Origin: a virus | Lineage: Duplodnaviria > Caudoviricetes | IMG/VR virus record: IMGVR_UViG_3300016265_001897 | Coordinates: 1 to 30,442 of that record | DNA: 30,442 nt | Reading direction: 5' to 3' (one strand) | Shown here: positions 1-30,442 of the stretch, one piece after another | Numbering within the stretch: position 1 is the stretch's first letter | How the letters are laid out: each line of letters begins with the position of its first letter | Translations under genes and position numbers: made by a program | The notes under the pieces: model-generated | What the model was told of the DNA's origin: nothing | Databases searched by the model: none | What the model saw: the letters and a program-made list of their open reading frames with translations, nothing else

Positions 1-199
1 GAATCAACACAAGCGTGGGCGCTTTCCAGCTTCATTGTTCTACTACACTATCGAGCAGGAATGCTGCATCGGTATGCTTGATCTGTTAGAGCGCTATTTC
101 ATAATGAAGTATCGTAGCATCAGCCCATTTGGATTTAATGAGCAGGTGAATAGCTACAACCAGTTCAGGCGTTCAAGCGTGCAAGAGAAGAAGAAGAAA
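1..199. repeat. Terminal direct repeat, left copy (probable assembly circularisation overlap)
   Basis: 1-199 (GAATCAACACAAGCGTGGGC...GAAGAAGAAA) is identical to 30244-30442, giving a 30,243 bp circle. The repeat lies inside a coding gene. Confidence 0.95.
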
Positions 200-403
200 A
201 CACTATCAGATATTGCAAAATCGCAGTGGCAAAATGATCGCGAAAGAATGGTAATGTCGATGTCTGACAGAAAGAAACCGCCTCCCTTCAGTGAAGAGCA
301 TCGACTCAGGATGTCTCAAAGTAGGACGGGAAAGAAGTTCTCAGAAGAAACAAAGGCTAAGCTCTCTGCTGCCGCAAAGAACCGCAGCAAAAAAAGAAAG
401 TGA
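1..403 (+). CDS. GIY-YIG homing endonuclease with NUMOD3-like C-terminal motifs (3' part; gene starts at GTG 30164 and crosses the circular junction, ~160 aa)
   Basis: The joined translation reads MIGIYRITCKATGKIYIGQSTKIESRWNQHKRG...LERYFIMKY...GFN, which contains GIY, YIG and the conserved R, E and N residues. It is followed by FSEEHRLRMSQSRTGKKFSEETKAKLSAA (two NUMOD3-like motifs). In frame with track ORF 35..403. Confidence 0.92.
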   Translation, partial: NQHKRGRFPASLFYYTIEQECCIGMLDLLERYFIMKYRSISPFGFNEQVNSYNQFRRSSVQEKKKKTLSDIAKSQWQNDRERMVMSMSDRKKPPPFSEEHRLRMSQSRTGKKFSEETKAKLSAAAKNRSKKRK

Positions 404-1882
404 ATGATGAACATCAAGGATGTGCTCGCCGATCCTGTGCTCTTCTGCAGTCGTCTCCAAATCGTTGATAAGCGCGGTCGTCCCTGCAAGCTGGCGCTCA
501 GGAGCGAGCAGATCGCGATCATCGAGGCACTCGCAGCAGGGGATGACACGCTTGTCCTGAAGGCACGGCAGATCGGCTCAACCACGGCGGTCGCTGCCTT
601 CTTCTTCTGGAAGTGGTTCACGGCCGATGGTCCCGAGACCTACGTGAGCCTGAGCCACAAGCTTGCCTCAGCGAAGCATATCCTTGCCATCCAGCAGCGC
701 TTCTATGAGGGACTGCCCAAGGCACTGCGAAGGTCACTGTCTGTTAGTAACACCACAACCATGACACTCGCTGATACGGGCGCAACTCTGATGGCTGCCT
801 CAGCCGAGGGCAAGGGCGGACTGCGAAGCTTCACCGCCACGGGACTGCATATCTCGGAGTTCGCATTCACTCCCAATGCCGAGGAGCTGAAGGCAACGGC
901 GATCGCTGCTCTCAACGGTGGTCAGCTCTGCATCGAGAGCACGGCAAACTTCTTCGGTGATCCGCTGCACAAGGAGATAGAGCTCTGGGATGCGGAGCTC
1001 GTTGACTGGAACTTCCTGTTCTTCCCATGGACCGAGCACGCGGAATACAGCGAGCCGCCACCTGAAGGATTCCAATGCGACGACTCGCTCGATCTCTCAC
1101 CGGGCCAGCAATACTGGATGGCCCGCATGATGGGCAAGCTGGGGGAGACGAAGTTCCGCCGTGAGTATCCGCTCTCGGTCGATGATGCCTACGCCCAGAC
1201 TGACGGCGCCTGGATAGAGGCGGAGATGCTGAAGGACATACAGGTGGTGAAGCTCGAGCCCGAGGGCGGACAGCTCCACGCTGTGGATCACAACGACAGG
1301 TATGCGATCGGAGTTGACACAGGCGCTGGGACCGGGGGAGACTACTCAGCGCTCGTTGTGGTCTCAGCGACAAGCGGTCAGCCCGTCGATATCCGACGCA
1401 GCAACCGGCACACACCGACAGAGTGGGCTGAGGTTGTCGCGGATGCATCGAGGAAATGGAAGGATGCGAAGGTTCTCGTCGAGAGCAACGGAACCTGGGG
1501 CGGTGTGGTCATCACCGAGCTGAAGCACTGCGGTGTCCCACTGTGGAAGGATGCTGACGGCAAGGACTGGATCACCAATGCATCGACGAAACCAAAGATG
1601 CTCGAGGCCCTGAAGGATACTATCAGTCGCGGTGGGCTGACGATGCTCGATAGCTGGACGATCGGTGAGCTGCGATCCTTCAAGGTGGATGACCGTGGCA
1701 ATCCTTTCTGCCCTCGCGGTGGTGTCCACCATGGAGACACGGTGATCGCGTTATCTCTCGCTCTTCAGTGCGTGCAGAAGGTGAGCGTTCCCGATCGCCC
1801 TTACCTCCCAGACTGGATCATCGCCAGACGGACGGCTGAGGCGTATAAGAACGCCGGCAAGCAACAATTTCGCAGATACTAA
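404..1882 (+). CDS. terL: Terminase large subunit
   Basis: Walker A-like VLKARQIGSTT, Walker B-like LHISEFAF, motif III IESTAN, RNase H-fold nuclease YAIGVDTGAG..DYS and C-terminal HGDTVIALSLA. Directly upstream of the portal. Confidence 0.93.
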   Translation: MMNIKDVLADPVLFCSRLQIVDKRGRPCKLALRSEQIAIIEALAAGDDTLVLKARQIGSTTAVAAFFFWKWFTADGPETYVSLSHKLASAKHILAIQQRFYEGLPKALRRSLSVSNTTTMTLADTGATLMAASAEGKGGLRSFTATGLHISEFAFTPNAEELKATAIAALNGGQLCIESTANFFGDPLHKEIELWDAELVDWNFLFFPWTEHAEYSEPPPEGFQCDDSLDLSPGQQYWMARMMGKLGETKFRREYPLSVDDAYAQTDGAWIEAEMLKDIQVVKLEPEGGQLHAVDHNDRYAIGVDTGAGTGGDYSALVVVSATSGQPVDIRRSNRHTPTEWAEVVADASRKWKDAKVLVESNGTWGGVVITELKHCGVPLWKDADGKDWITNASTKPKMLEALKDTISRGGLTMLDSWTIGELRSFKVDDRGNPFCPRGGVHHGDTVIALSLALQCVQKVSVPDRPYLPDWIIARRTAEAYKNAGKQQFRRY

Positions 1883-1901
1883 ATATTTTTGCAGAGTTCG
1901 A

Positions 1902-1910
1902 TATACTTAG
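1902..1910 (+). promoter_or_regulatory. TATAnTTAG promoter-like motif (TATACTTAG) before portal
   Basis: Located in the short AT-rich terL-portal gap. The same motif recurs at other module boundaries. Confidence 0.6.
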
Positions 1911-1918
1911 GAGACAGC

Positions 1919-3532
1919 ATGGCACGCACAGAGAAAGACAGGATACAGTTCATCAGAGCTTCGCTCCAGCAGCACACCGACTACTGGGATGAGATGCGTC
2001 CTCAGATGCGCCGTTACCGCAACGCCTACATGACCAAGTTCTACGAGGACATGGACTCGGTTGACGCTGACAGCAGCATTCGAGTCGAGACTGCCGATGC
2101 CTATGCCTCCATTGAATCGCTGATGGGCTCACTCTTCACCAAGTATCCATCGGTTGAGGTGGCACCTGATATCACGGGCAAGGGAGATCTCGGGCTAACA
2201 AAGGAGATCAGCAACAACTGGCTGAAGACCTGCCGTTCCCAGATTGAGAACGCTGCACGCATGTCCCTCATCTACACGCATTCCTTCCTGAAGCTTGCAC
2301 CGCGTGAGAGCAACAACATCCTCACCAAGGTTGCGATGCGGGCTGTGCCGCCGTGGCAGGTGATCCTTGACCGCGATGCTGCTGCCTGGGAGGACAGTCG
2401 ATTCATCGGTCACGTCTACTACATCAGCGTTGACGAGGCGACCGAGAAGTTCGGCTCCAAGAAGTGGAACGGCACAGCCCAGCGTGACTACTTCACAGAC
2501 TACGAGCGCAACACCGATCGGAGCTATCGCAGCTACGGTGACAGCCCTGATCTCCCAAACGAGTATCTCTACATCGAGATCGTGGAGATGTATGACTTCA
2601 TCAACAAGGAGCTCCTGTTCTGGTCATCGCAGTGGAAGAACGGTGAGGAGCTGCTTGACAAGGCGAGCATCCCGGTGATGACATTCGATGGTCGTCCCCT
2701 CAGCAACATCGTTCCCTTCTACTTCGCACGCCGTCCTGACCGTCCCATGGAGGGATACTCAGCCCTTGGTCGTGTCTATGACCAGTGCTTCGAGAAGAAC
2801 ATCCTCCGCACCTTCTGGGCAAACGCGGTCCGCCGTGACAGCCGCCAGTTCATCTACAAGGAGGGCGCCTTCGATGAGGAGGCGCTCGCCAAGATCACGA
2901 GCGGTGTCGATGGTGCGATGATCCCGACAGACAGTGACACCATCACCGGTCTCATCGATCAGGTGCCTGTCACTCCCATCAGCAGCAACCACGCTGCCTA
3001 CCTCAACTACATCGAGCAGGATCTTCAGAAGGGATCGCTCACAGCGGGCTTCACGAGGGGCGAGGCAAGTCGGGCAACGGCGACTGAGGTGACTGCCCTC
3101 ATGCAGTATACGGCAAGTGAGCTCGGTAAGATGGCCCGTGACCGCGACTCCACCATCGAGGCTGCCGTCCTCCTCTACATCCGCATGCTGCTGCCGTTGG
3201 TCGATGACAGCGAGCGACTTGTTGTTGCGACGCCCGATGGCGCCAAGATCCTCAGCTCCGCCAAGATCGATGCTGACTGGACCTTCTACGCCACTGACGG
3301 TGGCTCAACTCCGATGACCGACATGGTTCGCAAGCAGCAGATCCTGCAGCTCCTCCCAATCCTTCCAGGTCTCGGTGTCCCAGCGGCTGTCATCAAGGAG
3401 GAGGTCATCAGGCTCTTCGAGCTCCCAGCAAGCTTCGCTCAGGAAGCTCCTGAAGCGGCTGCCACCTCAGTCGAGCGCCCACAGGCGGCAACTCCTGAGG
3501 CAACAGTCTCTGATGTTATTGGTGGTGCCTAA
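1919..3532 (+). CDS. Portal protein
   Basis: 537 aa from ATG 1919 (AGGAG upstream). Lies after terL; mostly helical; portal-like segments VPPWQVILD and RGEASRATATEV. Confidence 0.85.
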   Translation: MARTEKDRIQFIRASLQQHTDYWDEMRPQMRRYRNAYMTKFYEDMDSVDADSSIRVETADAYASIESLMGSLFTKYPSVEVAPDITGKGDLGLTKEISNNWLKTCRSQIENAARMSLIYTHSFLKLAPRESNNILTKVAMRAVPPWQVILDRDAAAWEDSRFIGHVYYISVDEATEKFGSKKWNGTAQRDYFTDYERNTDRSYRSYGDSPDLPNEYLYIEIVEMYDFINKELLFWSSQWKNGEELLDKASIPVMTFDGRPLSNIVPFYFARRPDRPMEGYSALGRVYDQCFEKNILRTFWANAVRRDSRQFIYKEGAFDEEALAKITSGVDGAMIPTDSDTITGLIDQVPVTPISSNHAAYLNYIEQDLQKGSLTAGFTRGEASRATATEVTALMQYTASELGKMARDRDSTIEAAVLLYIRMLLPLVDDSERLVVATPDGAKILSSAKIDADWTFYATDGGSTPMTDMVRKQQILQLLPILPGLGVPAAVIKEEVIRLFELPASFAQEAPEAAATSVERPQAATPEATVSDVIGGA

Positions 3533-3534
3533 GC

Positions 3535-4014
3535 ATGCCCTGCTACGAATACAAGTGTGACAGCTGCGGTGGCGTCTCTGATCATTTCATGTCATGGCAG
3601 CGGAGCCAGGAGGTTGACATCATCTGCGGGAAGTGCGAGGTTCCGAAGCGCAAGCTGATCAGCCTTCCGGCAAAGACCGCCACTCTGTGGAACGCGGGCT
3701 GGAATAGTGGCCTCAGCAACAACGGTTTCTACAGCTACTCAGCTGGGCAGCAGGTTGCCAACAAGCGTGAGGAGGAAGCGATCATGCGCTCACGTGGATA
3801 CATCAATGAGAAGGATCTTGGCGGTGAGAACTTCTACAATGATTACATGACCGAGAAGAAGAATGAGCGCGATGCTCTTGACGCCACCGCAAAGACCTAC
3901 AGGGAGAACCTGAGGAAGTTCGATGGGGATAAGGTCCGTGCTGTTACGGAAACATTCCCAGCCCATGAGATGCTGAAGCAAGCAGCCGATCACGATGCCA
4001 AGAAAGGAGCCTAA
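3535..4014 (+). CDS. FmdB-like zinc-ribbon protein
   Basis: N-terminus MPCYEYKCDSCG...CGKC...RKLISLP matches the MPxYEYxCxxCG/CxxC FmdB zinc-ribbon pattern. Confidence 0.75.
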   Translation: MPCYEYKCDSCGGVSDHFMSWQRSQEVDIICGKCEVPKRKLISLPAKTATLWNAGWNSGLSNNGFYSYSAGQQVANKREEEAIMRSRGYINEKDLGGENFYNDYMTEKKNERDALDATAKTYRENLRKFDGDKVRAVTETFPAHEMLKQAADHDAKKGA

Positions 4015-4015
4015 C

Positions 4016-4534
4016 ATGACACCTGATGAGAAGATGGAACTTGAGAAGATGCGTGCCGAGGCGATGAGCCGATCGGCTGACGTCGAGGAGAGCGAGGACG
4101 AGCTCTACACCGCGGTCTCGCCGAAGGGCAAGTTCAGCGGCAAGGCGCTCAACTCGCTTGTCGATGCTGTCAACCGCCTGCTGCCGCTCTTCGGAATCGA
4201 GGAGAAGTATGATCGCTTCGGTGGTGGGACCGTGGCGTCACTGCCCCCCGAGTTCGTGCGCCTGCTGACGATGTTCAGCCGTGCGATCGCTGACGCTGTT
4301 GATGCAGGCATCCTGCCCGATGACGCCATCGTCGATATGAAGATAATCGTCGATGACAGCGGTCTGCAGGGACTTGCTGGTCGCATCGGCATGGCAGCGA
4401 AGAGCCCAGGCTTCAAGCGCTGGCTGCTCCGCAAGGTGACTGCCGCCGGCGGTGAGGAGATGAAGGAGGGCGAGGAGACTGGCGACGAATCGACCTCAGA
4501 GGACACTGATAATCTATTCAAGGAGAGAATGTAA
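4016..4534 (+). CDS. Hypothetical acidic protein in head module
   Basis: ATG 4016 follows AAGGAG. Fills the gap between neighbouring genes and has typical codon usage. Confidence 0.75.
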   Translation: MTPDEKMELEKMRAEAMSRSADVEESEDELYTAVSPKGKFSGKALNSLVDAVNRLLPLFGIEEKYDRFGGGTVASLPPEFVRLLTMFSRAIADAVDAGILPDDAIVDMKIIVDDSGLQGLAGRIGMAAKSPGFKRWLLRKVTAAGGEEMKEGEETGDESTSEDTDNLFKERM

Positions 4535-4537
4535 CAC

Positions 4538-5386
4538 ATGTCAACCATCGCAGCCACGCCGTCCACGGCACCTGCACAGACCGCCACCAGCACCACTGGC
4601 GAGCCCGTGCAGTCACTCAATACGGGAACCAATGGTGCACCAGGGGGGAGCGAGAATAATGTAACAGAGAGCACGGGAGGGGGAGCGGATGAGGATGTCG
4701 ATCTCTCCCTTGACGAGCTCGTTGGTCCCGAGTTCGACGACCATCCTGACCTGAAGGGCGGGCACAAGGGACTGCCCGACTACAAGAAGATCCTCGAGCA
4801 CCTGCCTGAGAATGGGCGTAAGCTCCTCGGCAACCTGCGCTCGAGCTACACTCAGAAGACGCAGGAGCTTGCCGAGGCTCGCCGCCAGCTTGAGGCTGAG
4901 AGGGCAAAGCTCGAGCGTGACAGGCAGCTTCTGACGGAGAGTGAGTGGGCGAAGCAGGTCCGTGCCCAGGCCGAGGCTCCACTCCAGCATGATGCTTGGA
5001 GCGATGAGGGGCTGCAGGAACGGATCAACAAGCAGGCTGCTGAGATGATGCAGCGGATGCTCTCACCGCTCCAGCAGGACCTCGAGGCACAGCGCCGCCA
5101 GGTGGCTCTCGACAGCTTCAAGTCCCAGCATCCTGATCTCACATCCGATGAGATCCGCGTGCCTGTTGCCCGCCTCCTGATGGATCGACCTGAGCTGAAG
5201 CTCGAGGATGCATACTTCATCGTGAAGGGACAGGTGAGTCGCCAGCAGGCGGATGCCGTCAAGCAGGCCCAGCGGGAGACGCTGAAGAAGACAAGCACCG
5301 GCAACGCTGTCCGCAATGCCCAGCCCCCCAAGTTCAAGTCCGCCTGGGAAGCTTACCAGTATCACAAGGCGAACGGCGGTAGATGA
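4538..5386 (+). CDS. Capsid scaffolding protein (putative)
   Basis: Disordered acidic N-terminus, YTQKTQELAEARRQLE coiled coil, LEDAY motif and short C-terminal SAWEAY helix. Immediately upstream of the capsid gene. Confidence 0.75.
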   Translation: MSTIAATPSTAPAQTATSTTGEPVQSLNTGTNGAPGGSENNVTESTGGGADEDVDLSLDELVGPEFDDHPDLKGGHKGLPDYKKILEHLPENGRKLLGNLRSSYTQKTQELAEARRQLEAERAKLERDRQLLTESEWAKQVRAQAEAPLQHDAWSDEGLQERINKQAAEMMQRMLSPLQQDLEAQRRQVALDSFKSQHPDLTSDEIRVPVARLLMDRPELKLEDAYFIVKGQVSRQQADAVKQAQRETLKKTSTGNAVRNAQPPKFKSAWEAYQYHKANGGR

Positions 5387-5462
5387 AAAAAAATATGCAA
5401 CGGGGAGCGATTAATCCGCGTGACATAATATGTATGATAAAATCAGTGCAACTTCTCCCGAC

Positions 5463-5577
5463 TGCCACGATGGATCCGAGAGGACAACCGGAGTGGGAAC
5501 TGAGGAAAGCGGAGCCGATGAGGCTAACCGAACCGTCAGTCACTCGCTCATCCCAGCAATTCCGCTGGGGGGCGGCA
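5463..5577 (+). ncRNA. Putative structured 5' leader RNA of the major capsid gene
   Basis: Nested complementary segments: TGCC5463/GGCA5574, TCC-GAGA-GGA 5475-5484, GAGTG5491/CACTC5541, ACTGA5499/TCAGT5536, GCC-GATGA-GGC 5514-5524, CCCAGC5552/GCTGGG5564. Confidence 0.55.
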
Positions 5578-5610
5578 TCAATCAATCAGTCAATCTAAGG
5601 AGTCATAACA

Positions 5611-6633
5611 ATGCCTATTTCCAATGAACTCCTCAGCTCGACTCTGTTCAGCATCCGTGACGGCGAGGTAGACGAGCTCTTCCAGAGAGTTCCCTTCCTC
5701 GACTTCGCCAAGAAGCTGGGCGGCATCGAGTATGAGGACGGCGGGATCAAGATCCAGCGCCCCCTCGCTGTGAGCAACCACAGCACCATCACCCCGCTCC
5801 CCACCGGTTACGAGCCTGTCTCCCTCGCGGTGCAGGACGTCATGCAGCCCGCTCTCTACGAGTGGTCTGACTTCGTGGCGCCCATCGTCATCACGAAGAA
5901 GGAAGAGCTCGAGAACAGCGGCGAGAAGGCGATCGTGAAGATCGTCGAGGCCCGCATGCGTAACGTGATGGGGCTGCTCCGTCGTGAGATCAACAAGCAG
6001 CTCGTCGCTGGTAACTCTGCGGTGCTCACCTCCCTCGGCACTCTGAACGGTGTCGCCACGACCACGGGCTTCCTCGAGCAGGGCGCCCCGACGGCGGCCG
6101 GTCAGACGAACCCCGTTGGTGGTCTTGCCCGTTCGCTCGTCCCGGACGGCAACGGTCTCTTCAACCGCATCTTTGACGCGGCCGGCGCCTTCGGCACCAA
6201 CGGCATCCGCGGCATGCACCAGATCGCGGCTGAGACCTCGGCCCGCGCCCCGATGGGAGAGGTGAAGCTCGTCCTCGCTTCCGAGGCTGGCTACGCCAAC
6301 TACCGTCGTGCGCTCTTCGCCCAGGAGCGTTACATCGACGAGAAGCAGCTTAACGCTGGTTACATGTCCCTCGCCTTCGGCAACGCCGCGGTCGTCCAGG
6401 ATGTGTTCATGCCGGACGCTTCGGTCAACGGCGCTGGTAACGCGGCGACGATGTATTTCATCAACTTCGACGGTATCAAGCTTGTGATGCACTCCGACGG
6501 CGACCTCGTTGTCAGCCCGTTCGAGTATATCCCGGGCACGACCGCTCGTTCGGCGCAGATCTACTGGAAGGGCCAGCTCATCGCTGACAACCTTGCCAGC
6601 TGCGCTCTGCTCTTCAACGGGGAGGTCTTCTAA
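5611..6633 (+). CDS. Major capsid protein (HK97 fold expected)
   Basis: 340 aa with strong SD (TAAGGAG) and the most biased codon usage in the genome. Motifs GGIKIQRPL, YEWSDFVAPIVIT, NSGEKAIVKIVEARM and TMYFINFD. Follows the scaffold gene. Confidence 0.88.
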   Translation: MPISNELLSSTLFSIRDGEVDELFQRVPFLDFAKKLGGIEYEDGGIKIQRPLAVSNHSTITPLPTGYEPVSLAVQDVMQPALYEWSDFVAPIVITKKEELENSGEKAIVKIVEARMRNVMGLLRREINKQLVAGNSAVLTSLGTLNGVATTTGFLEQGAPTAAGQTNPVGGLARSLVPDGNGLFNRIFDAAGAFGTNGIRGMHQIAAETSARAPMGEVKLVLASEAGYANYRRALFAQERYIDEKQLNAGYMSLAFGNAAVVQDVFMPDASVNGAGNAATMYFINFDGIKLVMHSDGDLVVSPFEYIPGTTARSAQIYWKGQLIADNLASCALLFNGEVF

Positions 6634-6635
6634 TC

Positions 6636-7160
6636 ATGGCAACTTCAACTCTCGTTCAGTATCTCGAAGCGAGCGGTGTCTCGGTCAGCGGCGCGTCCGT
6701 TGCCCTCGGCACCACTCCCTCCGACCGTCTGCAGAAGGAGACCTTCCTCACCGAGTCTGCCATCACCAAGGGCCAGCTCGTTGCGGTGGATGTCTCCAAG
6801 ATGGCGACCGACACGACCGGTGGCAGCACCGCGCTGACCGTCATCACCGCTGACTACAACTCCGCCACGGTCCAGAAGATCGTTGTCGGTGTTGCGGCGG
6901 CCTCGGTGACGGGCACCGCGACCTCCCCCCAGCCGATCGAGGTCATCGTCCGTGGTCCCGCTCTCGCGGTCCCGGCCGTTGGCGCGATTGCCCAGGGCGA
7001 TCCGGTGGTCCTCGATCCGGCCGGTGCGGCTGGTTCCTGCGCGGCCCAGGGCGCTTACAACTCCGCTTCCGCTAACCTCGTGAGTGAGGCCGTTGGCTTC
7101 GCCATGACGGCTGCGGCTGCCGGTGTTGTGAACGTCTACGTGCTCGGTAAGGGCATCTAG
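6636..7160 (+). CDS. Capsid cement/decoration protein (putative)
   Basis: Ala/Gly/Val-rich with AITKGQLV..VVGVA..VIVRGP..AIAQGDPV pattern. Co-transcribed with the capsid gene ahead of a terminator and has similar codon bias. Confidence 0.7.
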   Translation: MATSTLVQYLEASGVSVSGASVALGTTPSDRLQKETFLTESAITKGQLVAVDVSKMATDTTGGSTALTVITADYNSATVQKIVVGVAAASVTGTATSPQPIEVIVRGPALAVPAVGAIAQGDPVVLDPAGAAGSCAAQGAYNSASANLVSEAVGFAMTAAAAGVVNVYVLGKGI

Positions 7161-7174
7161 CTCACAGTGGAAGT

Positions 7175-7209
7175 CGGGCGGTCCTCAATTGCGGGGACCG
7201 CCCGCTTTT
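7175..7209 (+). terminator. Intrinsic terminator after capsid and cement genes
   Basis: CGGGCGGTCCTC-AATTGC-GGGGACCGCCCG stem followed by CTTTT. Confidence 0.8.
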
Positions 7210-7221
7210 GCAATCTGACAG

Positions 7222-7230
7222 TATAATTAG
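7222..7230 (+). promoter_or_regulatory. TATAnTTAG motif (TATAATTAG) before tail module
   Basis: Immediately after the terminator and before GAGGAG/GTG 7245. Contains a perfect TATAAT. Confidence 0.65.
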
Positions 7231-7244
7231 ATGAGGAGCAAACT

Positions 7245-23098: not shown

Positions 23099-24031
23099 AT
23101 GGCTGGAAATGGTGTTGATGTATTCTCATCCAGTAATGCGTTTCCCGGTGGCGGGGGCGGTGGCAGTGGTTTCTCTGCAAGTTATGGCTTAGGACTCTTC
23201 GGTGATGGCAGCGATGGTGATGCCACGATTGTTGGCACGACCACGCTGACGAAAGAGACGCACTACAACAATCTTACCATCACGGCAACTGGGATCCTGA
23301 AGCCCAATGGGCATCGTATCTTCGTGAAGGGATTACTCATCATAGCGACAGGCGGATCCATCAACGATGACGGTCTCGATGCAGTTGGAACTGCTCAGGG
23401 CGCGGCATTGACTCAGAGGAACTGGCTCGATGCGACAAGCACGCAGGGCGGTGTGGGACGCGTCACAGCTGGTGTTGGAACTGCAGGTGGGGCGCAATCA
23501 AGCAACGTCAGCCCGAATGCTCTTGGTCTCGCTCCAGCAGGTGGAACAGGTGGAACAGGTGGAGTCAACGCAGGTGGTGCTGGTGGTTCCAGCAACTTCA
23601 TGACGCTGTCACGACGCTGGTCATCGTGCGCCGTGCAGTTCTCAGGTCGTGCTGGCAACGCATCAGATTCCTGGAAGGGAGGAACTGGTGGTGGAGCAGG
23701 TGGTGCTGATGCGACCGGTGGCACCATCATCAACTCCGGTGCAGGTGGAAGCGGTGGTGGGATCGTATGGATCTCAGCGTATAACGTCACCAATGCTGGT
23801 AGAATCTCTGCCAATGGTGGGAATGGTTCCTCAGCTGCAACGACTGGCACAGCTTCTGCTGGTGGTGGTGGCGGTGGTGGCGGTGGTCTTGTCTGCCTCA
23901 TCACTGAGACCAACACTGGAGTTGGAACCGTGCAAGCAGCTGGTGGTAACGGTGGTGCTGGTGCTGGACCAAGCGGAGCAGCTGGAGCACCAGGATCTGT
24001 CGGATCTGTTGTCACTCTCATTCTGACCTGA
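23099..24031 (+). CDS. Glycine-rich fibre/adhesin-like protein
   Basis: FGDGSDG motif and repeated GGxGG runs alternating with short beta strands (GGSGGGIVWI, ISANGGNG, GGGGGGGGGLVCLI). Consistent with a polyglycine-II-rich adhesin domain. Confidence 0.65.
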   Translation: MAGNGVDVFSSSNAFPGGGGGGSGFSASYGLGLFGDGSDGDATIVGTTTLTKETHYNNLTITATGILKPNGHRIFVKGLLIIATGGSINDDGLDAVGTAQGAALTQRNWLDATSTQGGVGRVTAGVGTAGGAQSSNVSPNALGLAPAGGTGGTGGVNAGGAGGSSNFMTLSRRWSSCAVQFSGRAGNASDSWKGGTGGGAGGADATGGTIINSGAGGSGGGIVWISAYNVTNAGRISANGGNGSSAATTGTASAGGGGGGGGGLVCLITETNTGVGTVQAAGGNGGAGAGPSGAAGAPGSVGSVVTLILT

Positions 24032-24041
24032 GGAAATCAAT

Positions 24042-24224
24042 ATGACACAAACATGGCTTATCTTTGAAGCTGATGCAGCGGCGTCATACATCAGCTGGCA
24101 CCTGTCAAGAAATCCTGACGCAGTGGGATACTTCCTTGGTTGTCCTCCGTTCCTAAGCGGGCTTGCCGAGGAGGAGGGCTGGACACTCAGACCACCTCAC
24201 ATTTGGATTGAGGATGTTGTCTGA
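24042..24224 (+). CDS. Hypothetical 60-aa protein (possible fibre accessory)
   Basis: GAGG SD; fills the gap exactly. Confidence 0.6.
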   Translation: MTQTWLIFEADAAASYISWHLSRNPDAVGYFLGCPPFLSGLAEEEGWTLRPPHIWIEDVV

Positions 24225-24225
24225 T

Positions 24226-24504
24226 ATGGAAGGGCTCGTAGCTCTAGTCACAGGTCCGTTCGGCGCCCTTGCACTTGCTGTCGGTATCCTGTGGTGGTTA
24301 GCTAACAAGATGCTGCCCGTCCTCCAGGCATACTTCGATGGTCACAATGAGAAGCTCGGCAAGCTTGTTGTTGCGCTTGAGAAGACTGTTGACACACACG
24401 AGAAGGACCGGGAAACATTCACGGAAACCATCGCCGGAATCACGAAGCGCATCGAAGCGGTCGAGGATAAGGTGGAAATCATCCACAAAAAGCTAACCTC
24501 TTAG
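24226..24504 (+). CDS. Putative holin (BhlA-like architecture)
   Basis: ATG 24226. One N-terminal TM segment (GPFGALALAVGILWWLA) followed by a charged coiled coil ending RIEAVEDKVE. Confidence 0.55.
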   Translation: MEGLVALVTGPFGALALAVGILWWLANKMLPVLQAYFDGHNEKLGKLVVALEKTVDTHEKDRETFTETIAGITKRIEAVEDKVEIIHKKLTS

Positions 24505-24526
24505 AACACACTGGAGTGCCCAAAAC

Positions 24527-24697
24527 ATGCAACCTGAAAAGATACTCGTCAAGCTTCCTTGGCCGCAGATTGCCCGACTCATTGCCACTCTGATCAAGTC
24601 AGCACGTGGTGGTATCAGCAGGGAGGAGGGAGAGGAGCTCATTGAGCTGCTTGCTGAACTCATCGCTGCACTTGCTACTGGACTCCAGGTGAAGTGA
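24527..24697 (+). CDS. 56-aa amphipathic helical protein (not in ORF track)
   Basis: GGAG SD. MQPEKILVKLPWPQIARLIATLIKSARGGISREEGEELIELLAELIAALATGLQVK; fills the gap. Confidence 0.7.
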   Translation: MQPEKILVKLPWPQIARLIATLIKSARGGISREEGEELIELLAELIAALATGLQVK

Positions 24698-24700
24698 TGA

Positions 24701-25255
24701 ATGACAAAGCAGTATGTCAAACCACGGACTGGTCAGTTCATCAAGGAGAGCACGGGATCGAGCTCAACGTCTACCTCAACGGCAGATCTGACATCCTTGG
24801 TGGCTCAACTGAGCGCAGCCCAATCGCAGGTAGCCTCGCTCCAGAGCCAGGTGACCACATTGCAAGCCCAGGTAGCAGCCGACGCGGTGGTGATCTCAGC
24901 TTTGCAATCCCAACTTTCAGCGGCACAAGCACAGGTCTCCTCTCTTACCGCTCAGGTGGCGGCGCTTCAGTCGCAGGTGACGACGCTTCAGGCTCAAGCG
25001 GCAGTTGATGCTGCTACGATAGCAAGCCTGGCGTCTCAGGTAGGGACACTTCAATCGCAGGTCTCCTCTCTCCAGGCGCAGGTCTCTGCCCTGAGCAATC
25101 CAATGTATGGACGATTCATCCTGACAAGGATGACAGCAACAGGTGGTGGAATCTACGTTCCTCCATCGTATTCTGATCCGACTGTCAACCTTCGTCCCCT
25201 GCTTGGAAAGGCAATCAACAGACAGATAACAAGAACGGGCGGAGGCTATCCGTGA
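24701..25255 (+). CDS. Coiled-coil fibre protein
   Basis: 15 uninterrupted heptads of the type VxxLQxQ (residues 30-134). Confidence 0.7.
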   Translation: MTKQYVKPRTGQFIKESTGSSSTSTSTADLTSLVAQLSAAQSQVASLQSQVTTLQAQVAADAVVISALQSQLSAAQAQVSSLTAQVAALQSQVTTLQAQAAVDAATIASLASQVGTLQSQVSSLQAQVSALSNPMYGRFILTRMTATGGGIYVPPSYSDPTVNLRPLLGKAINRQITRTGGGYP

Positions 25256-26238
25256 GTAAAATAGAACCATGCACCTGGACAATGTCAGCAGCTGGACTTG
25301 TCACACCGACAACCTCGCAGCTGTCAGCGGTCAACACCATCCAGACTCTCATCACCAACTCATCCAACTGGAGAGTTGTCAGCACAGGCACAACGGCAAG
25401 CGGCAAGAAATACGTTGAAGCTGCTCCGCTGATCGGCTCTCTCTACAAGGATATGCGTGTCCTATTCCTGGAGATGGCGATCAATAACAACGGTAAGACG
25501 TTCTACGACAACAGCACAACGCTTGTTAACAAGCTGTGCTACATGATCTGTCCTGATGGTGGTGCGTCATACTGCACCTTCACACCGTCCAGGCTTGAGG
25601 CAGCATCAGCACCTTACGCTCCAGTCTACGTTGGTTCAAAGTATGCGACAGATGTGTGGTCATCGATCGACAGTCCATACACTGCAATCTGGATGTATGA
25701 GTGTGATGGTGCGATGTGGCTTGTCAACAGAAACGCAGCCACGTCACATTCATTGCATGCTATCGGTCAGGTGTTCAATCATCCCAGGACTGATTGGCAG
25801 GATTGGAACGAGGCTGGGACAGAGCTTGGTCTGATGGGAGTATACAGCGTCAGAGGTCTAACAGCAACAAGTTTGGCTGGAGCTACTACTCTGTTCAACA
25901 GCTCAACATCGAACCGTGGTCTCGTGTTCTTCACCAGAACCTCTGCTGCTGCGGCAGCAACGATAAGGAACGTCAACAACGGACAGACACCGGACGCAGC
26001 GTGGATTGTGCAGAATGCATCTTACAATTCAACGCTTGGAACAGCTCTCTTCATGCCTGTTGCTGCAGTTGGTAGCAACAACATCGGTGCTGTGGTCATG
26101 CGTGGTTTCTATCTCATTGGAACCTTTCAGACGCGGACTACAATCAAGGATTCAACTGGAGCAACAACTCTAGGATACACCTTCTATCCTGATGATATCA
26201 ACGCAGGTTATGCAGCAGCTTGGATGGCAACACCATGA
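25252..26238 (+). CDS. Putative receptor-binding/structural protein (328 aa)
   Basis: GTGA overlap with GGAGG SD. Thr/Ser/Ala/aromatic beta-rich composition; lies in the fibre cluster. Confidence 0.55.
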   Translation: MSKIEPCTWTMSAAGLVTPTTSQLSAVNTIQTLITNSSNWRVVSTGTTASGKKYVEAAPLIGSLYKDMRVLFLEMAINNNGKTFYDNSTTLVNKLCYMICPDGGASYCTFTPSRLEAASAPYAPVYVGSKYATDVWSSIDSPYTAIWMYECDGAMWLVNRNAATSHSLHAIGQVFNHPRTDWQDWNEAGTELGLMGVYSVRGLTATSLAGATTLFNSSTSNRGLVFFTRTSAAAAATIRNVNNGQTPDAAWIVQNASYNSTLGTALFMPVAAVGSNNIGAVVMRGFYLIGTFQTRTTIKDSTGATTLGYTFYPDDINAGYAAAWMATP

Positions 26239-26444
26239 CAATTATCTTTTCGATTATAGATTTCGTTAGCGATCAGGTTGTGTGGAAGTTACGTCATAAT
26301 CCGTCCTGGGAGATTCCATTCGTAACGCTGGCTGGAACTCAACACATCTGGAACTGGGACTTTATCAGTGGCAACCTGCTTCAGGATGGTGTGCCGCTGA
26401 CGGGATACACAATCATGATCGAGAAAGAAGATGCCCCAGTTTAG
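26235..26444 (+). CDS. Hypothetical 69-aa protein
   Basis: ATGA overlap with the upstream stop; overlaps the endolysin start. Confidence 0.6.
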   Translation: MTIIFSIIDFVSDQVVWKLRHNPSWEIPFVTLAGTQHIWNWDFISGNLLQDGVPLTGYTIMIEKEDAPV

Positions 26445-26820
26445 TCAGCGCAGCACTGATCGTCTATCAACATGCCATCGACTGCTTCAGAGATTGATGC
26501 AGTCAGTGGTGGCTGATCTTGATATTACTATCATCTGCGGTTTCAGGGGAGAGGGGGAGCAGAATGATGCATATGCTATCGGTGCATCGAAACTGAGATG
26601 GCCTCAGTCAAAGCACAACGTCTCTCCCAGCATGGCAGTGGATGTTGCTCCCTATCCAATAGACTGGAACGATGATGAACGGTTCAAGAAGATGGGGCAG
26701 GTGGTGAAGGAGCACTGGGAACGGATACCAGTCGAGGAGAGGATGGGATACAGTCTCAGCTGGGGCGGAGACTGGAAGAGCTTTAAAGATTTACCGCACT
26801 TTGAACTGAGGATGAGATGA
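26431..26820 (+). CDS. Endolysin, peptidase M15 family (L-Ala-D-Glu peptidase-like)
   Basis: GFRGEGEQ, SKH....AVDV (Zn ligands H and D), WGGDW and DLPHFEL motifs. Confidence 0.92.
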   Translation: MPQFSQRSTDRLSTCHRLLQRLMQSVVADLDITIICGFRGEGEQNDAYAIGASKLRWPQSKHNVSPSMAVDVAPYPIDWNDDERFKKMGQVVKEHWERIPVEERMGYSLSWGGDWKSFKDLPHFELRMR

Positions 26821-27641
26821 ATCCACTATTGATGCTGCTCGGTTGTGGTCCTTCAGGTTGCTCAGCACCTGAGGAAGAGAAGAAGAAACCTGATCTTGGA
26901 TATGATCCTGAACTTGCAAAGAAAGCAAGGTTCCAAACTGAGTTCAACATTCTATTCCCAGAGATGAAGGAAAAGATCGATGCGTTGAAGAGCATCGAAG
27001 ACAGTCCTTTCACCAATGTCGATGATAGGGATATTGCTATTGCACTGTATAGTTCTCTCATTCAGGAGAACATACCAGGAAAAACAACTGGCAAACAGGT
27101 AAATGCTAAGAAAGGAAGCACTGCAGTTGGAGCCCTTCAACTTGAACCTTCGACAGTTGTGAATGCACCGAAGGCATTAGCATACAAACCACAAAGTCTA
27201 GCCACATTGAAGGCGCTGAAGGATCTCAGTCCAGGTAGCGTGAAGCTGCTGCAGAGGGCAGATGAACTATCGAGGATGAAGAAGGACAGTGATAGGTTGG
27301 CTGCAACCAAGAAGCTGGATGGTGAGGATTATTCTAAAGAACTTGGAGTGATGAACGATGCTGACCTCCAGTCACTGATCAAGGTGATTGATATGCTCGC
27401 CAAGAAAGACGACATCTCAGATATGTATGAATCAACTAAGAGTGGCACTTACGACAAACAGTTCTGGGATAAAGTCAAGATATTGCAGCACTCAGGTAAA
27501 ACGCTGTATGAGCATGGAGATAAACCTACTGATGAAACACGTCAGGCTAAGTTGCAGTATGGACAGGAAGAGATGACTGCTGGAAAGCAATACGTGCTCC
27601 AGTATCTGGCACCGAAGCCAGAAGATAAGAGCTCAAAATGA
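26817..27641 (+). CDS. Hypothetical protein with lysozyme/SLT-like motif and possible lipobox
   Basis: LIQEN...NAKKGSTAVGALQLEPST resembles the SLT E-S...GAxGLMQLxPxT motif. N-terminus MNPLLMLLGC. Confidence 0.45.
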   Translation: MNPLLMLLGCGPSGCSAPEEEKKKPDLGYDPELAKKARFQTEFNILFPEMKEKIDALKSIEDSPFTNVDDRDIAIALYSSLIQENIPGKTTGKQVNAKKGSTAVGALQLEPSTVVNAPKALAYKPQSLATLKALKDLSPGSVKLLQRADELSRMKKDSDRLAATKKLDGEDYSKELGVMNDADLQSLIKVIDMLAKKDDISDMYESTKSGTYDKQFWDKVKILQHSGKTLYEHGDKPTDETRQAKLQYGQEEMTAGKQYVLQYLAPKPEDKSSK

Positions 27642-27850
27642 GGATCGATATTGGGGACGCTGTCATCCTAACGAAGGATGCAGTGCTAACCTTAAGGGAC
27701 CAAGGCTACAGCCTGGAGGGAGAGCTTGCTGAGGTGGTTGACCGTCAGATAGTTCCTGATGGGATCGATCTCACTCTCAGGTTTGACACCACGAAGGTGC
27801 TGATCACAGAGATACCGATCCAGTTTGTTCAGCATGTAGGCGTCTGCTAA
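27638..27850 (+). CDS. Small SH3/KOW-like protein (70 aa)
   Basis: ATGA overlap. IDIGDAVIL...AEVVDR beta-barrel-like pattern. Confidence 0.55.
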   Translation: MRIDIGDAVILTKDAVLTLRDQGYSLEGELAEVVDRQIVPDGIDLTLRFDTTKVLITEIPIQFVQHVGVC

Positions 27851-27884
27851 AAGAGAACAGGGGCTGGGATTCGTTCCCAGCCCC
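27849..27884 (-). terminator. Intrinsic terminator (U-tail on minus strand)
   Basis: Perfect 10-bp stem GGGGCTGGGA/TCCCAGCCCC (27860-27884). The minus strand continues UGUUCUCUUUU. Confidence 0.7.
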
Positions 27885-28038
27885 CGGAGTCTTGCAGCGA
27901 CTCTCTCGTCATTTGGCTAACGTGATGGTGATTTGGAGGTATGCCGCAGTGACGATAACGTAAAGCTAAAAGAAGAGCGGTGGTAAGGTGTGTGAGGAAA
28001 AATGTCAGAAAACCTCAGCTTCCCTTACCACCGCTCTC
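27849..28038 (-). ncRNA. Candidate ~190-nt structured small RNA (ncRNA-A)
   Basis: Starts 8 nt after a TATATT box. Perfect 15-bp stem 27974-27988/28023-28037; further stems 27906-27911/27950-27955 and 27887-27891/27899-27903. Ends in the terminator; no ORF longer than a few codons seen. Confidence 0.55.
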
Positions 28039-28052
28039 ATATCTAAATATAC
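28035..28052 (-). promoter_or_regulatory. 18-bp promoter-like repeat copy 1 (GTATATTTAGATATGAGA)
   Basis: Identical to 28520-28537 and contains TATAnTTAG. Confidence 0.7.
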
Positions 28053-28059
28053 TGCTCAA

Positions 28060-28523
28060 TCTGAATCTTTGCAGTCTTCAGCACTTTCTCTACATTTTTA
28101 TAGCAGTGTCTCTGCTCTAGATACAGAACCACTATAGAGCGACCGAACTTTGACCTGAATCCGTCTCTCTTACTGCTTGTCTGATTCACCTTATTCAGCT
28201 GCTCCCTTAAATCCTTCAGTAGCAGTCTTCTATTTGGTGGGCTCTTGAGTCTTCGCCTTGATGTCGTCTACCTTGTTCCGTCCAGTTTCCTGAATGGCAG
28301 ATTCCAGTGGTCACGGAGATCTACGAGGCTTGATCATCAACTCAGCGGGGGCCAGATAGTGGTAAGCAGCTGGGATCCCATTTAGTGGCTATTGCTTTTT
28401 TCATGAGCTTAACTCCCTGACGAAACCATCAGGAGCTCACTACTTATCCATTCACCACCACGTCTAAGACTGAAGAGAGAGACCGGGAGGATTGGAACCT
28501 CTGCACCACCATCAGGCGGTCTC
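28060..28523 (-). ncRNA. Candidate long structured RNA (ncRNA-B) with tRNA-like 5' module; 3' end uncertain
   Basis: Starts 8 nt after a TATATT box. 7-bp GAGACCG/CGGUCUC stem plus T-arm-like GAGG-UUCCAAU-CCUC. Further hairpins at 28413-28435, 28281-28294 (GAAA loop), 28156-28188 and 28114-28140. G-U pairs favour the minus strand. Confidence 0.45.
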
Positions 28524-28537
28524 ATATCTAAATATAC
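28520..28537 (-). promoter_or_regulatory. 18-bp promoter-like repeat copy 2
   Basis: Identical to 28035-28052. Confidence 0.7.
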
Positions 28538-28600
28538 GCTTCGATGGTAATCTTTTCTGAGAACGCTAAATAAACAAAAAAAATTGATTACATTTTCTAC

Positions 28601-28912
28601 ATGAAAGAACAACGCTTCAAGAGCGACGGAACTCCATACAAGAAAAAATACTACAGCTCATTTGCAAGTAACGCAAATAGCTGGCGTTCTCTAGAAGAAG
28701 TTGGCAACATCGAGGGCATATCCAAGAATAGAGTGTCGATGATCATATCAAAAGCGATGGAGAAGATAGCCCTCTCAGTTCTCAGAGATATAAGAGGACA
28801 CCGTCCAACAGACGAGGAGCTGGACGTCATCTCGAAGGATGAATCATTCCAGCTCCTGGTAGCTGAGGTGATGGAGTCTACGCAATCCAGCGTGGACCGC
28901 CGGGATCCTTAG
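28601..28912 (+). CDS. Sigma-70 region-4-like helix-turn-helix protein
   Basis: RSLEEVGNIEGISKNRVSMIISKAMEKI matches the sigma r4 pattern TLxEIGxxLGISRERVRQIxxxALxKL. No sigma region 2. Confidence 0.7.
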   Translation: MKEQRFKSDGTPYKKKYYSSFASNANSWRSLEEVGNIEGISKNRVSMIISKAMEKIALSVLRDIRGHRPTDEELDVISKDESFQLLVAEVMESTQSSVDRRDP

Positions 28913-28933
28913 ATGGTGGGATATACTGTGGAG

Positions 28934-29389
28934 TCACAGCCCCACCTGAGCAACAAAGCCTGCCTCGGCGCAGATCCATGGCATGATGACACACTGGGCA
29001 TCATGACGCTCGAAGGTCCGTCTGTTCTTGATCCAATCCCTCAGCCGGTCGCTACGGTAGATGTAAGCCCAGCTCCTGGAGCGGTCGATGAAGACAACAA
29101 CATCACTCTTCCCAGTGCTCCATCCAACAGGACGACCAGCCTTGGTGGTCACCTCAACGCAGACGGTATCGTAGTATTGCCCCCAGGCGGAGACACCGGC
29201 GTTGCTCTTCACCTCAACACGCTTGCCACGAAAGATCATGTCGTAGCCATCGAAGAATCTATTCGGATCCTCACTGATCCACTGGGCGGCGGGATCAGTC
29301 TCACTCATAAGAGCAAACAGGCGCGCTTCGAATTCCTTACCGACCTGGAGGCTGCGCTTGCCGTCCTCGGTGTGCCAATCTGATGCCAT
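28934..29389 (-). CDS. PD-(D/E)XK family nuclease (151 aa)
   Basis: SD GGAGGT before ATG 29389. GKEFE...YDMIFRGKRVEVKS...VCVEV...GW.T.KSD.VVF is a restriction-endonuclease-like phage nuclease pattern. Confidence 0.75.
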   Translation of the reverse strand: MASDWHTEDGKRSLQVGKEFEARLFALMSETDPAAQWISEDPNRFFDGYDMIFRGKRVEVKSNAGVSAWGQYYDTVCVEVTTKAGRPVGWSTGKSDVVVFIDRSRSWAYIYRSDRLRDWIKNRRTFERHDAQCVIMPWICAEAGFVAQVGL

Positions 29390-29452
29390 TGTATACCTCC
29401 ATTTTTTTCCTCGACGGGCTGCAAATCCGCGAGGACATGGATAGGTATGGCG

Positions 29453-29515
29453 CATCTTCGAAATTTCAAGATGTAAATGAATTTTGTTGAAAATATTTTC
29501 GACGGTTATAGTTAG
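29453..29515. promoter_or_regulatory. Divergent control region: two imperfect palindromes plus a TTGTTG-N17-TATAGT(TAG) promoter
   Basis: CATCTTCGAAATTTCAAGATG (29453-29473), GTTGAAAATATTTTCGAC (29486-29503) and TATAGTTAG (29507-29515). Confidence 0.55.
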
Positions 29516-29530
29516 GAATGTGGAGGCGCG

Positions 29531-29608
29531 GTGACGGCTGAAAAAGAAATCATCTACATCATCCTGTTCTGGATAGTGGCACTATGGAGCGGTGGAGTAT
29601 TCACATGA
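29531..29608 (+). CDS. 25-aa single-TM micro-protein (not in ORF track)
   Basis: GGAGG SD and GTG start. MTAEKEIIYIILFWIVALWSGGVFT; the stop overlaps the next ATG (ATGA). Confidence 0.55.
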   Translation: MTAEKEIIYIILFWIVALWSGGVFT

Positions 29609-29847
29609 ACGCAACTCCAGATTGGAGCAACTGCAGCATCCGACCAGGTGACCTTGTCCATGTCTACAGTCCATACCGTCGGACCGACGGGCAGGGCCTC
29701 TACACCATCGGTCTCGTGATCTCACTCAACAAGCCGCCCGTCGGCAGCCTTCAGATCTTCGATGCCCAGGTGCTGGTGGATGGAAGCATCATCAACGTCT
29801 ACAGGCACGATATGTATCGGATAACAGATGACTCGCTCTCGGTCTGA
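29605..29847 (+). CDS. Small SH3-like protein (80 aa)
   Basis: GGAG SD. IRPGDLVHV...IGLVISL...QVLVDGSI beta-barrel pattern. Confidence 0.6.
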   Translation: MNATPDWSNCSIRPGDLVHVYSPYRRTDGQGLYTIGLVISLNKPPVGSLQIFDAQVLVDGSIINVYRHDMYRITDDSLSV

Positions 29848-29915
29848 AAAAATTACACTCTTTTCACCAGCAATCCCGGATGGCGTGTATAGTTATCGTG
29901 ATGGAGAGTGCACTC

Positions 29916-30167
29916 ATGAATGAACACGCACGGGACTTTAAGAAAGTTAGGAAAGCTGTCAAGGACAGAAACCTGCAGGAGATGTGCTGGGAGATGCTCA
30001 GCATGTCGATAGACGATATTGAAGCGACGGGAAAAGCAGAGCTCTTCGGTAAGACTGGTCTGATGGAACTCATTCGCGTCCTATCAATCCAGAAGAACAC
30101 TGACCATATGTCGGATCGTATGGAGAAGATCTCAGAGATGCGTGAATGGTTGAGGAAGAGCGCGTGA
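29916..30167 (+). CDS. Small helical protein; terminase small subunit candidate by position
   Basis: TATAGTTAT (29888-29896) and GGAG upstream. Precedes the endonuclease and terL on the circle. Start could alternatively be 29901. Confidence 0.5.
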   Translation: MNEHARDFKKVRKAVKDRNLQEMCWEMLSMSIDDIEATGKAELFGKTGLMELIRVLSIQKNTDHMSDRMEKISEMREWLRKSA

Positions 30168-30442
30168 TCGGCATCTATCGCATCACATGCAAGGCGACGG
30201 GAAAGATATACATCGGTCAGTCTACAAAGATTGAATCACGTTGGAATCAACACAAGCGTGGGCGCTTTCCAGCTTCATTGTTCTACTACACTATCGAGCA
30301 GGAATGCTGCATCGGTATGCTTGATCTGTTAGAGCGCTATTTCATAATGAAGTATCGTAGCATCAGCCCATTTGGATTTAATGAGCAGGTGAATAGCTAC
30401 AACCAGTTCAGGCGTTCAAGCGTGCAAGAGAAGAAGAAGAAA
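30164..30442 (+). CDS. GIY-YIG homing endonuclease, 5' part (continues across the junction to 403)
   Basis: GTG 30164 overlaps the upstream TGA. MIGIYRITCKATGKIYIGQS. Confidence 0.9.
   Translation, partial: MIGIYRITCKATGKIYIGQSTKIESRWNQHKRGRFPASLFYYTIEQECCIGMLDLLERYFIMKYRSISPFGFNEQVNSYNQFRRSSVQEKKKK
30244..30442. repeat. Terminal direct repeat, right copy
   Basis: Identical to 1-199. Confidence 0.95.

Follow-up and report, generated by a model that had tools for sequence, protein, structure and literature searches.

A closed freshwater podovirus genome with a conserved structured non-coding element and no recognizable replication gene

Genome closure and gene content

Here we describe the virus record IMGVR_UViG_3300016265_001897 (30,442 nt; "the window" refers to this whole stretch) and, within it, a conserved non-coding element that lies between the lysis genes and the gene for the terminase large subunit (TerL), close to a small PD-(D/E)XK nuclease gene. 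The window is a complete freshwater podovirus genome with a full virion and lysis set. As an earlier note on this DNA had proposed, it closes: the two ends share a 199-bp overlap, giving a circle of 30,243 bp, and joining them restores in frame an intact GIY-YIG/NUMOD3 open reading frame (ORF) of 166 aa. Positions 404–27641 make up 90.1% of this circle, confirming that about 90% is devoted to packaging, head, tail, ejection and lysis genes, counting among these an accessory gene and small basic proteins without assigned function; in all there are more than 35 genes, including ejection proteins and an endolysin (Table 1).

In a metagenome run that is possibly the source of the record, and not an independent one, contigs corresponding to 12000–16063 and 16137–30270 match it without differences at depths of 8.6 and 7.9. 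Depth is thus even, with zero differences over 16137–30270, although the junction itself is spanned only by a short, low-depth contig. Close strains from at least three other studies (freshwater, river) cover the region, and the order of the terminase small subunit (TerS) candidate and TerL across the junction agrees with that of the family described below. Terminal repeats close the genomes of two relatives that also lack replication genes, G002 (29.9 kb) and G020 (31.4 kb), so the replication-less state is no assembly accident; beside these two closed genomes, eight more contigs spanning the same interval share it. The identical, even-depth contigs and the two closed relatives speak against the window being a collapsed fragment of a larger genome.

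Absence of replication, integration, and partition genes

Scans with PHROGs and Pfam (41 ORFs) and NCBIfam (19 ORFs) identified TerL, portal, major capsid protein (MCP), adaptor, a tail/internal virion protein, an M15 endolysin, a sigma70 region-4 helix-turn-helix (HTH) protein and a GIY-YIG nuclease, but no Rep, primase, polymerase, helicase, integrase or Par family. This absence is weak when taken alone, because Pfam and PHROGs also missed four of six control replication proteins from relatives (239–357 aa), namely their PolA-like and initiator/loader-like genes. We therefore searched all six frames of the circle with profiles built from the relatives' replication proteins, and no match reached E ≤ 1 except one in a shadow frame (E 0.35). 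By all four types of search, the earlier statement that no replication, integration or partition gene is recognizable holds.

A conserved structured element in the non-coding tract

A 750-bp tract (27850–28600) separates the small ORF that follows the lysis region from the HTH gene. Six-frame comparison with five relatives found no conserved open frame in it, and a hidden gene was rejected on this ground. The earlier description of the tract as non-coding is correct, but it overlooked a conserved element on the minus strand, predicted to be structured, which we call type A. It is 78% identical over ~430 nt to the corresponding sequence of L124 and L204, and its profile matches eight distinct records, including one 37-nt partial match (members: the window, G002, L124, L204, L136, L216, and L298). 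At its 5' end is a tRNA-like module whose acceptor-like stem is found in 7/7 members as five different sequences of 4–7 bp; for three members none of ~300 control placements produced a stem as long or longer, and for the other four 1–6% did. The closing stems of a 3' hairpin with a conserved loop likewise differ in all six members examined.

A TATAAT-like hexamer is aligned ahead of the element in 11 of 11 aligned elements; this −10-like box had been missed by a promoter scan because no −35 match accompanies it. At the far end of the tract the window has an intrinsic-terminator-like hairpin and T run, and a different hairpin with a T run occupies the same place in G002, L005, L136, and L126. 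Several members share a layout of promoter, RNA, purine/TA-rich run with short repeats, and terminator. A second −10-like box (28033–28051) repeats the first and is followed by a long hairpin (27974–28037), the start of which resembles the beginning of the main element. G022 and L153 have a comparable second box. We also observed a second conserved tract 3' of the element, consisting of GTTAGAG short repeats, a conserved block and a terminator, that is common to carriers of type A and of the type B element introduced below (L136:2390–2640, L005, L126, L298, L093:16400–16730); the window does not have this tract.

Several known categories were considered for the tract and rejected. ARAGORN, run on the window and on 10 loci that bear an element, found no tRNA or tmRNA, and the module offers just an acceptor-like stem and T-arm, with neither an anticodon-arm cloverleaf nor a tag frame. 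A group I intron with a homing endonuclease finds no Rfam match, the flanking genes are whole, and the type of nuclease is independent of the type of element. TAAATA, presumably the motif of T4-type late promoters, occurs at four plus-strand sites, three of them in the tract; late promoters of this type were rejected because two of the sites coincide with −10-like boxes read in reverse and no structural operon is preceded by any of them.

Five other family members (L005, L126, G013, G022, and L153) carry in the same slot a second element, type B, that is unrelated in sequence. In type B, 43 of 79 predicted pairs show two-sided changes, a count reached by 0 of 500 shuffles (slid controls 6–15), though these five sequences also served to derive the structure, and the pseudoknot in it is invariant. 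At L005:1885–2270 (−), and also in L126, L286, L288, and L153, type B appears to combine a T-loop arm with a long multibranch helix and probably a pseudoknot; by eye, its conserved purine-rich loops recall the interdigitated T-loops of the RNase P specificity domain or the T-box. Elements of both types are ~370–410 nt long, and neither matches Rfam 15 or, by blastn, any GenBank phage; type A is also without a blastn match in PLSDB. No description of either was found in the literature searched, which held few subscription papers and no supplements.

A swappable cassette in an uncultured phage family

Searches with MCP and TerL recovered a large uncultured family with TerL identities of 42–87% and complete or near-complete records of 28.6–35.2 kb. 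The GenBank phage set searched contains no cultured close relative, and the nearest named capsids, from Bradyrhizobium phage ppBjS10J-1 and Myxococcus phage Mx8, are 27% identical. The structural block is syntenic across the family, with a gene for an 83–130-aa protein directly before TerL throughout. We defined a close clade by TerL identity of at least 55%; in 15 of its members, including the window, the lysis-to-TerL interval was seen whole. Eleven of these have no recognizable replication gene (the window, G002, L005, L124, L204, L136, G013, L153, G022, L216, and L211), the replication genes of the other four being PrimPol-VapE, a polymerase with UvrD, or a small protein of winged-helix/PolA fold. 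Among the family records, Pfam places PrimPol-VapE in G003, L131, L145, and L146, and G014 has a polymerase-like gene with UvrD. The third module, a 340–357-aa protein of G001 and L212 with 16 homologues found, is modeled as an N-terminal winged helix joined to a family-A polymerase fold (G001 model pLDDT 86.5; Klenow Z 9.2, rmsd 6.2 over 247; top eight matches all family A) and is a candidate initiator-primase; it stands alone, without a Pfam or PHROG match, at L099:7531–8550 (−) and L212:1951–3021 (+).

Among distant records, 12 carry a two-gene pair that matches no library and that we take to be an initiator and helicase loader, and 11 are replication-less, seven by library scans (G004, G020, G021, L192, L223, L182, and L268) and four by our own profiles, partly by eye (L186, L262, L185, and L266). 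Across 141 interval ORFs, Pfam and PHROGs identified nucleases, methyltransferases, RusA and HTH proteins but no replication family. The lack of replication genes first noted for the window is thus a family trait, and the lysis-to-TerL interval is firmly established as a swappable replication cassette that includes an empty state, with close relatives swapping between five protein modules and none. TerL third-position GC (GC3) in the close clade ranges from 0.41 to 0.93, though the capsids are about 85–96% identical, which suggests different hosts or replication regimes.

The two elements follow this division. Of the close members with whole intervals, 10 of the 11 replication-less ones have type A or B and none of the 4 bearing a replication gene does; the distant records are all without either type. 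Comparison of the window with G001 shows a swap: the two genomes resemble each other at the endolysin and, further on, from the HTH end to the small ORFs, nuclease included (69% DNA identity), and between these shared flanks G001 has its 340-aa winged-helix/PolA-fold gene in place of the window's element. Because PolA-family proteins of mobile elements can act as primases, according to the available text of PMC10061031, a primase-like gene and the element would fill one slot. The same promoter and the same downstream tract flank either type A (L136/L298) or type B (L005/L126), and the two types interleave on the TerL tree (FastTree supports of 0.64–0.96 at key nodes), as expected for interchangeable functional cassettes. 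These patterns support the firm conclusion that two uncatalogued elements, each with a predicted structure, mark the replication-less state. The remaining close replication-less relative, L211, has a 360-aa orphan with a ribbon-helix-helix-like start (L211:5726–6805, +) that may be an unrecognized Rep.

A PD-(D/E)XK nuclease that tracks the replication-less state

The model of the 151-aa nuclease (pLDDT 89.6) has a PD-(D/E)XK fold with the restriction-endonuclease core, and D50, E59, and K61 are invariant in 54 of 54 nuclease sequences. Its fold matches include the homing endonuclease I-Ssp6803I (Z 9.4, rmsd 2.9 over 116) and the junction resolvase Hjc (Z 7.4, rmsd 3.2 over 102); the latter score falls below the former and among those of restriction enzymes, the scores being too close to separate these classes. 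Among replication-less members, 10/11 close and 7/11 distant ones have the nuclease, as do both PolA-like members; it occurs in 0/17 records with PrimPol, polymerase/UvrD or initiator/loader-like modules, some of which are partial contigs. Five replication-less records have no nuclease by profile (L211, L262, L185, L266, and L268). That the nuclease tracks the replication-less state is a firm result, and the pattern, like that of the elements, comes from few independent events.

Two further observations concern its surroundings. Proteins of 200–220 aa that look like small sigma factors by eye, without a library match, adjoin the nuclease gene at L280:15765–16421 (−), L182:3289–3915 (−) and L192:5716–6327 (−). 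Downstream of the gene, a tRNA-Arg with an ACG anticodon is found at L280:14659–14732 (−) and L192:4599–4671 (−), in two distant replication-less relatives.

Interpretation

A tailed dsDNA phage is expected to encode an initiator, a primase or a nicking Rep as a minimum. The reading that we tentatively prefer, at somewhat less than an even chance, is that this phage is helper-independent and that its replication is primed by a host-transcribed structured RNA of ~400 nt in the style of ColE1. Transcription of the element by host sigma70 RNA polymerase would run leftwards from near 28523; once folded, the transcript would stay hybridized to its template and supply a 3' end, which host polymerase I and the restart primosome would extend; and the nuclease might resolve branched intermediates, or trim the primer, allowing terminase to package concatemers. 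With a primase-like PolA protein the RNA would no longer be needed, and with a PrimPol-helicase or initiator system neither RNA nor nuclease would be; this matches the distribution of the two. We infer every step from transcription onward, and the element is linked to replication on two grounds, exclusion and position. On a family-wide scale it is possible, though we hold this with greater reserve, that many lineages of a widespread aquatic phage family have no replication protein and use an exchangeable RNA-only origin, with at least two unrelated folds of ~400 nt, that swaps with primase-polymerase, PolA-like and initiator genes. Of the pair of explanations put forward in the earlier note, replication by host enzymes from a cis origin gains genuine but indirect support from a promoter-led element that excludes replication genes, and a helper-dependent satellite finds no positive support; host-only replication is favoured.

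A number of points weigh against RNA priming. The transcription, R-loop, and origin activity of the element are predicted from sequence, and the transcript would run opposite to all structural genes. In the window, the element is no more stable than its shuffles (z +0.67), and the downstream short repeats present in five relatives are missing. Covariation counts rest on 5–7 sequences, with structures drawn from the same alignments, and in the automatic alignment of type A just 7/22 pairs are two-sided. The exclusion in the close clade goes back to only about three separate gains of replication genes, and replacement of the whole region could have removed the element passively. Seven distant replication-less relatives that bear the nuclease have neither type A nor type B; two of them (G021 and L192) have tRNA-Arg in the slot, which points to a tRNA-related role instead, and L211 is without replication gene, element and nuclease alike. 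Skews at fourfold sites give no clear leading strand (G excess on the minus strand, T excess on the plus strand). Cumulative GC skew, suggested earlier as a means of finding the origin, proved unsuitable, as it rises almost throughout with a small turn at ~28 kb and is confounded by the coding strand. We found no E. coli-type DnaA box on either strand.

The first alternative, overlooked in the earlier pair of explanations though the nuclease tracks the replication-less state, is that the nuclease is itself the initiator, nicking phage DNA so that a host polymerase (or the PolA-fold enzyme, where present) extends the nick into a rolling circle, with the RNA serving otherwise, for example by mimicking or binding the tRNA elbow. 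We place it ahead of the other alternatives because the nuclease matches the replication-less state over a wider range of records than the RNA and because tRNA-Arg stands in the slot of G021 and L192; the T-loops of both elements also suit a tRNA-related role. We nevertheless consider it doubtful: the best folds are those of a homing endonuclease, restriction enzymes and junction resolvases (Z 7–9), five replication-less records have no nuclease by profile, and the absence of the RNA alongside every replication gene is left unaccounted for. We know of no PD-(D/E)XK initiator.

A satellite that builds its own virion but needs the replisome of a co-infecting large phage, recruited by the element, seems unlikely. 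The window does encode its own capsid and packaging proteins with no replication or integration gene found, within the limited sensitivity of the libraries, and the available text of PMC10690885 provides a precedent in the capsid-encoding, primase-less satellites MiniFlayer and MulchRoom. TerL GC3 is also lower in element-bearing members (0.41–0.79) than in PrimPol/Pol members (0.80–0.93), which may echo a low-GC helper but may just reflect different hosts. Set against this are the phage's own ejection proteins, endolysin and holin candidates, the sigma70-type promoter before the element, and the recurrence of the state at 42–87% TerL identity, interleaved with self-replicating members. Three scans of IMG/VR with exact patterns, followed up with profiles, found neither element in a larger phage, and neither did blastn against GenBank phages and, for type A, PLSDB. 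The scans did return pattern matches outside the family (6/7, 14/18, and 7/11), but we take these as chance rather than as a helper, with no extended likeness save one 37-nt match to the T-arm only. Regarding hosts, the sole GTDB match is a closed 31.4-kb family contig, L279 (G020:C26), binned in an Isosphaeraceae metagenome-assembled genome; this bin is a weak clue because the phage contig is not integrated. In a blastn search of window positions 1–20000 against 400 genomes of the phylum of Isosphaeraceae, only 28–65-nt matches were returned (E ≥ 4e-5).

An unrecognized replication protein, whether in a small ORF (HTH, zinc-ribbon, or 179-aa) or within the 856- or 1711-aa protein, is improbable. 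The missed controls show that such genes can escape Pfam and PHROGs, but these controls were 239–357 aa and the window's interval has no unassigned ORF of such size. Relatives that encode replication genes carry the zinc-ribbon, 179-aa, and long proteins just as well, and the HTH protein has no match in the complete relative G002. Finally, an assembly artefact, or a defective particle that has lost its replication region, is very improbable and largely refuted by the coverage, close strains of other studies, closed relatives, and conserved TerS–TerL order given above, even with the thinly covered junction.

Whether a tailed phage replicates from an RNA-only origin becomes directly testable in this family; otherwise, a new class of satellite or initiator is in prospect. 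Should the link to replication fail altogether, two new phage RNA families of ~400 nt and a winged-helix/PolA-fold family missed by Pfam and PHROGs would remain.

Comparison with known systems

ColE1 replicates with no replication protein of its own, from a compact non-coding block in which a sigma70 promoter heads a structured transcript of several hundred bases. The window resembles it in having no recognized initiator protein (the nuclease being a possible exception), and its −10-like box, covarying structure and terminator-like hairpin may mark a comparable transcript; it differs in belonging to a tailed phage, in its 5' tRNA-like module, in showing no RNA I or G/C clamp, and in that its origin activity is predicted. 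No likeness to RNA I or RNA II appeared in Rfam or in blastn against PLSDB. A precedent for Rep-free replication supported by a region with a structured motif is ARRPOF, from a gene-free part of the Fusobacterium plasmid pKH9, which can replicate with rep deleted (available text of PMC5737381); the present elements have no Rfam match, occur in phages rather than a plasmid, and measure ~370–410 nt against averages of 223–349 nt for the three plasmid motifs given in that text. The same text describes GOLLD and ROOL, large multistem RNAs from phage contexts, often near tRNAs and of unknown function; the window's element is smaller, lacks an Rfam match, and has a distribution that excludes replication genes.

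MiniFlayer and MulchRoom, as the available text of PMC10690885 describes them, share with the window their own terminase, portal, and capsid and the lack of a primase, and MiniFlayer shares the lack of an integrase. They differ in having 20–26 genes, ~1-kb terminal repeats, and demonstrated helpers, whereas the window has more than 35 genes, ejection proteins, an endolysin, self-replicating sister lineages and no known helper. Satellites of the PICI, P4 and PLE kinds have an integrase and their own replicase and borrow a virion; the window has a full virion set and neither enzyme was found in it. The satellites covered in the available parts of PMC12822802 and PMC13587820 are without tail or lysis genes, unlike the phage described here. 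HTVC010P-type pelagiphages are abundant, small, host-dependent aquatic podoviruses without DNA or RNA polymerase, but in the available text of PMC8477408 most have a protein with a DnaA DNA-binding domain and all have an exonuclease, and no such initiator is seen in the window. Some duplodnaviruses lack almost all replication genes, according to the available text of PMC11348598. In its virion the window is closest to Mx8/ppBjS10J-1-like and SU10-type podoviruses, with MCPs 24–27% identical and matches to SU10-type portal and adaptor profiles, though their genomes are 39–53 kb.

Other features of the window

Table 1. Features of the 30,442-nt window in order of position
Feature	Position	Strand	Basis or remark
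Terminal repeat	1–199		Identical to 30244–30442; assembly overlap, circular or circularly permuted genome
Terminase large subunit (TerL)	404–1882	+	phrog_2, E 3e-24; Terminase_6N
Portal	1889–3532	+	phrog_156; SU10_portal weak
Zinc-ribbon protein, 179-aa protein, probable scaffold	3535–5386	+	Scaffold by position only
Major capsid protein (MCP)	5611–6633	+	Library match
174-aa protein, adaptor, tail proteins	6636–13209	+	Last three tail proteins probable, by position only
SU10-type adaptor	7245–8774	+	Profile match
Nozzle-like tail protein	8776–11025	+	Profile match
Three probable ejection (internal virion) proteins, 243, 856 and 1711 aa	13232–21681	+	Suggested by podovirus-like position
Small basic proteins, probable tail fibre/decoration proteins, two holin candidates	21678–26444	+	Predicted in part
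Holin candidates	24224–24504, 24527–24697	+	Predicted
M15 peptidase endolysin	26431–26820	+	phrog_465, E 9e-34; PF13539
274-aa accessory protein	26817–27641	+	Lipoprotein-like start; no library match
70-aa small beta protein	27638–27850	+	SH3-like by eye; found in several element-bearing relatives
Intrinsic-terminator-like hairpin and T run	27858–27886	−	Predicted; ends minus-strand tract
Second −10-like box and long hairpin	27974–28051	−	z −5.9 as DNA; candidate second small RNA
Conserved non-coding element, family A (type A), ~410 nt	28115–28523	−	Similarity and covarying stems; 3' end approximate
tRNA-like 5' module	28479–28523	−	7-bp acceptor-like stem, GG-bearing loop, 4-bp T-arm
T-arm with 7-nt T-loop	28487–28501	−	Part of tRNA-like module
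Sigma70 −10-like hexamer	28531–28536	−	7–8 nt upstream of element
103-aa sigma70 region-4 HTH protein	28601–28912	+	PF04545, E 1e-5
151-aa PD-(D/E)XK nuclease	28934–29389	−	Structure model; 173 aa from first ATG
25-aa membrane peptide and ~80-aa small beta protein	29531–29847	+	ORFs; relatives
Probable terminase small subunit	29916–30167	+	Position and conservation; no library match
GIY-YIG endonuclease, first part	30146–30442	+	Accessory; runs over junction to base 403; NUMOD3 tail

The zinc-ribbon, 179-aa, and scaffold block is kept in relatives with and without replication genes, and homologues of the ejection block, which gave a weak glycine zipper match, are present in relatives that have replication genes of their own. 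Neither the 856-aa nor the 1711-aa protein has a sequence match in the PDB, and the nearest named Atlas cluster for the latter is LPD38 (0.93). A coiled-coil protein at 24701 has only SMC/SbcC-type coiled-coil matches, below cut-off.

The 274-aa protein presumably carries a transglycosylase-like motif; we regard its gene as accessory because two close strains (contigs of runs X3 and X7) skip it. The earlier description of the 27.6–30.2 kb region as holding only ORFs of 160 aa or less was slightly off, the nucleases there being 151 aa (173 aa from the first ATG) and 166 aa. The 83–95-aa ORF ahead of the junction is probably the small terminase, as its homologue lies directly 5' of TerL family-wide and two Trp residues are invariant in 16/16 aligned sequences. 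In L140, a GIY-YIG gene is likewise placed between the TerS candidate and TerL.

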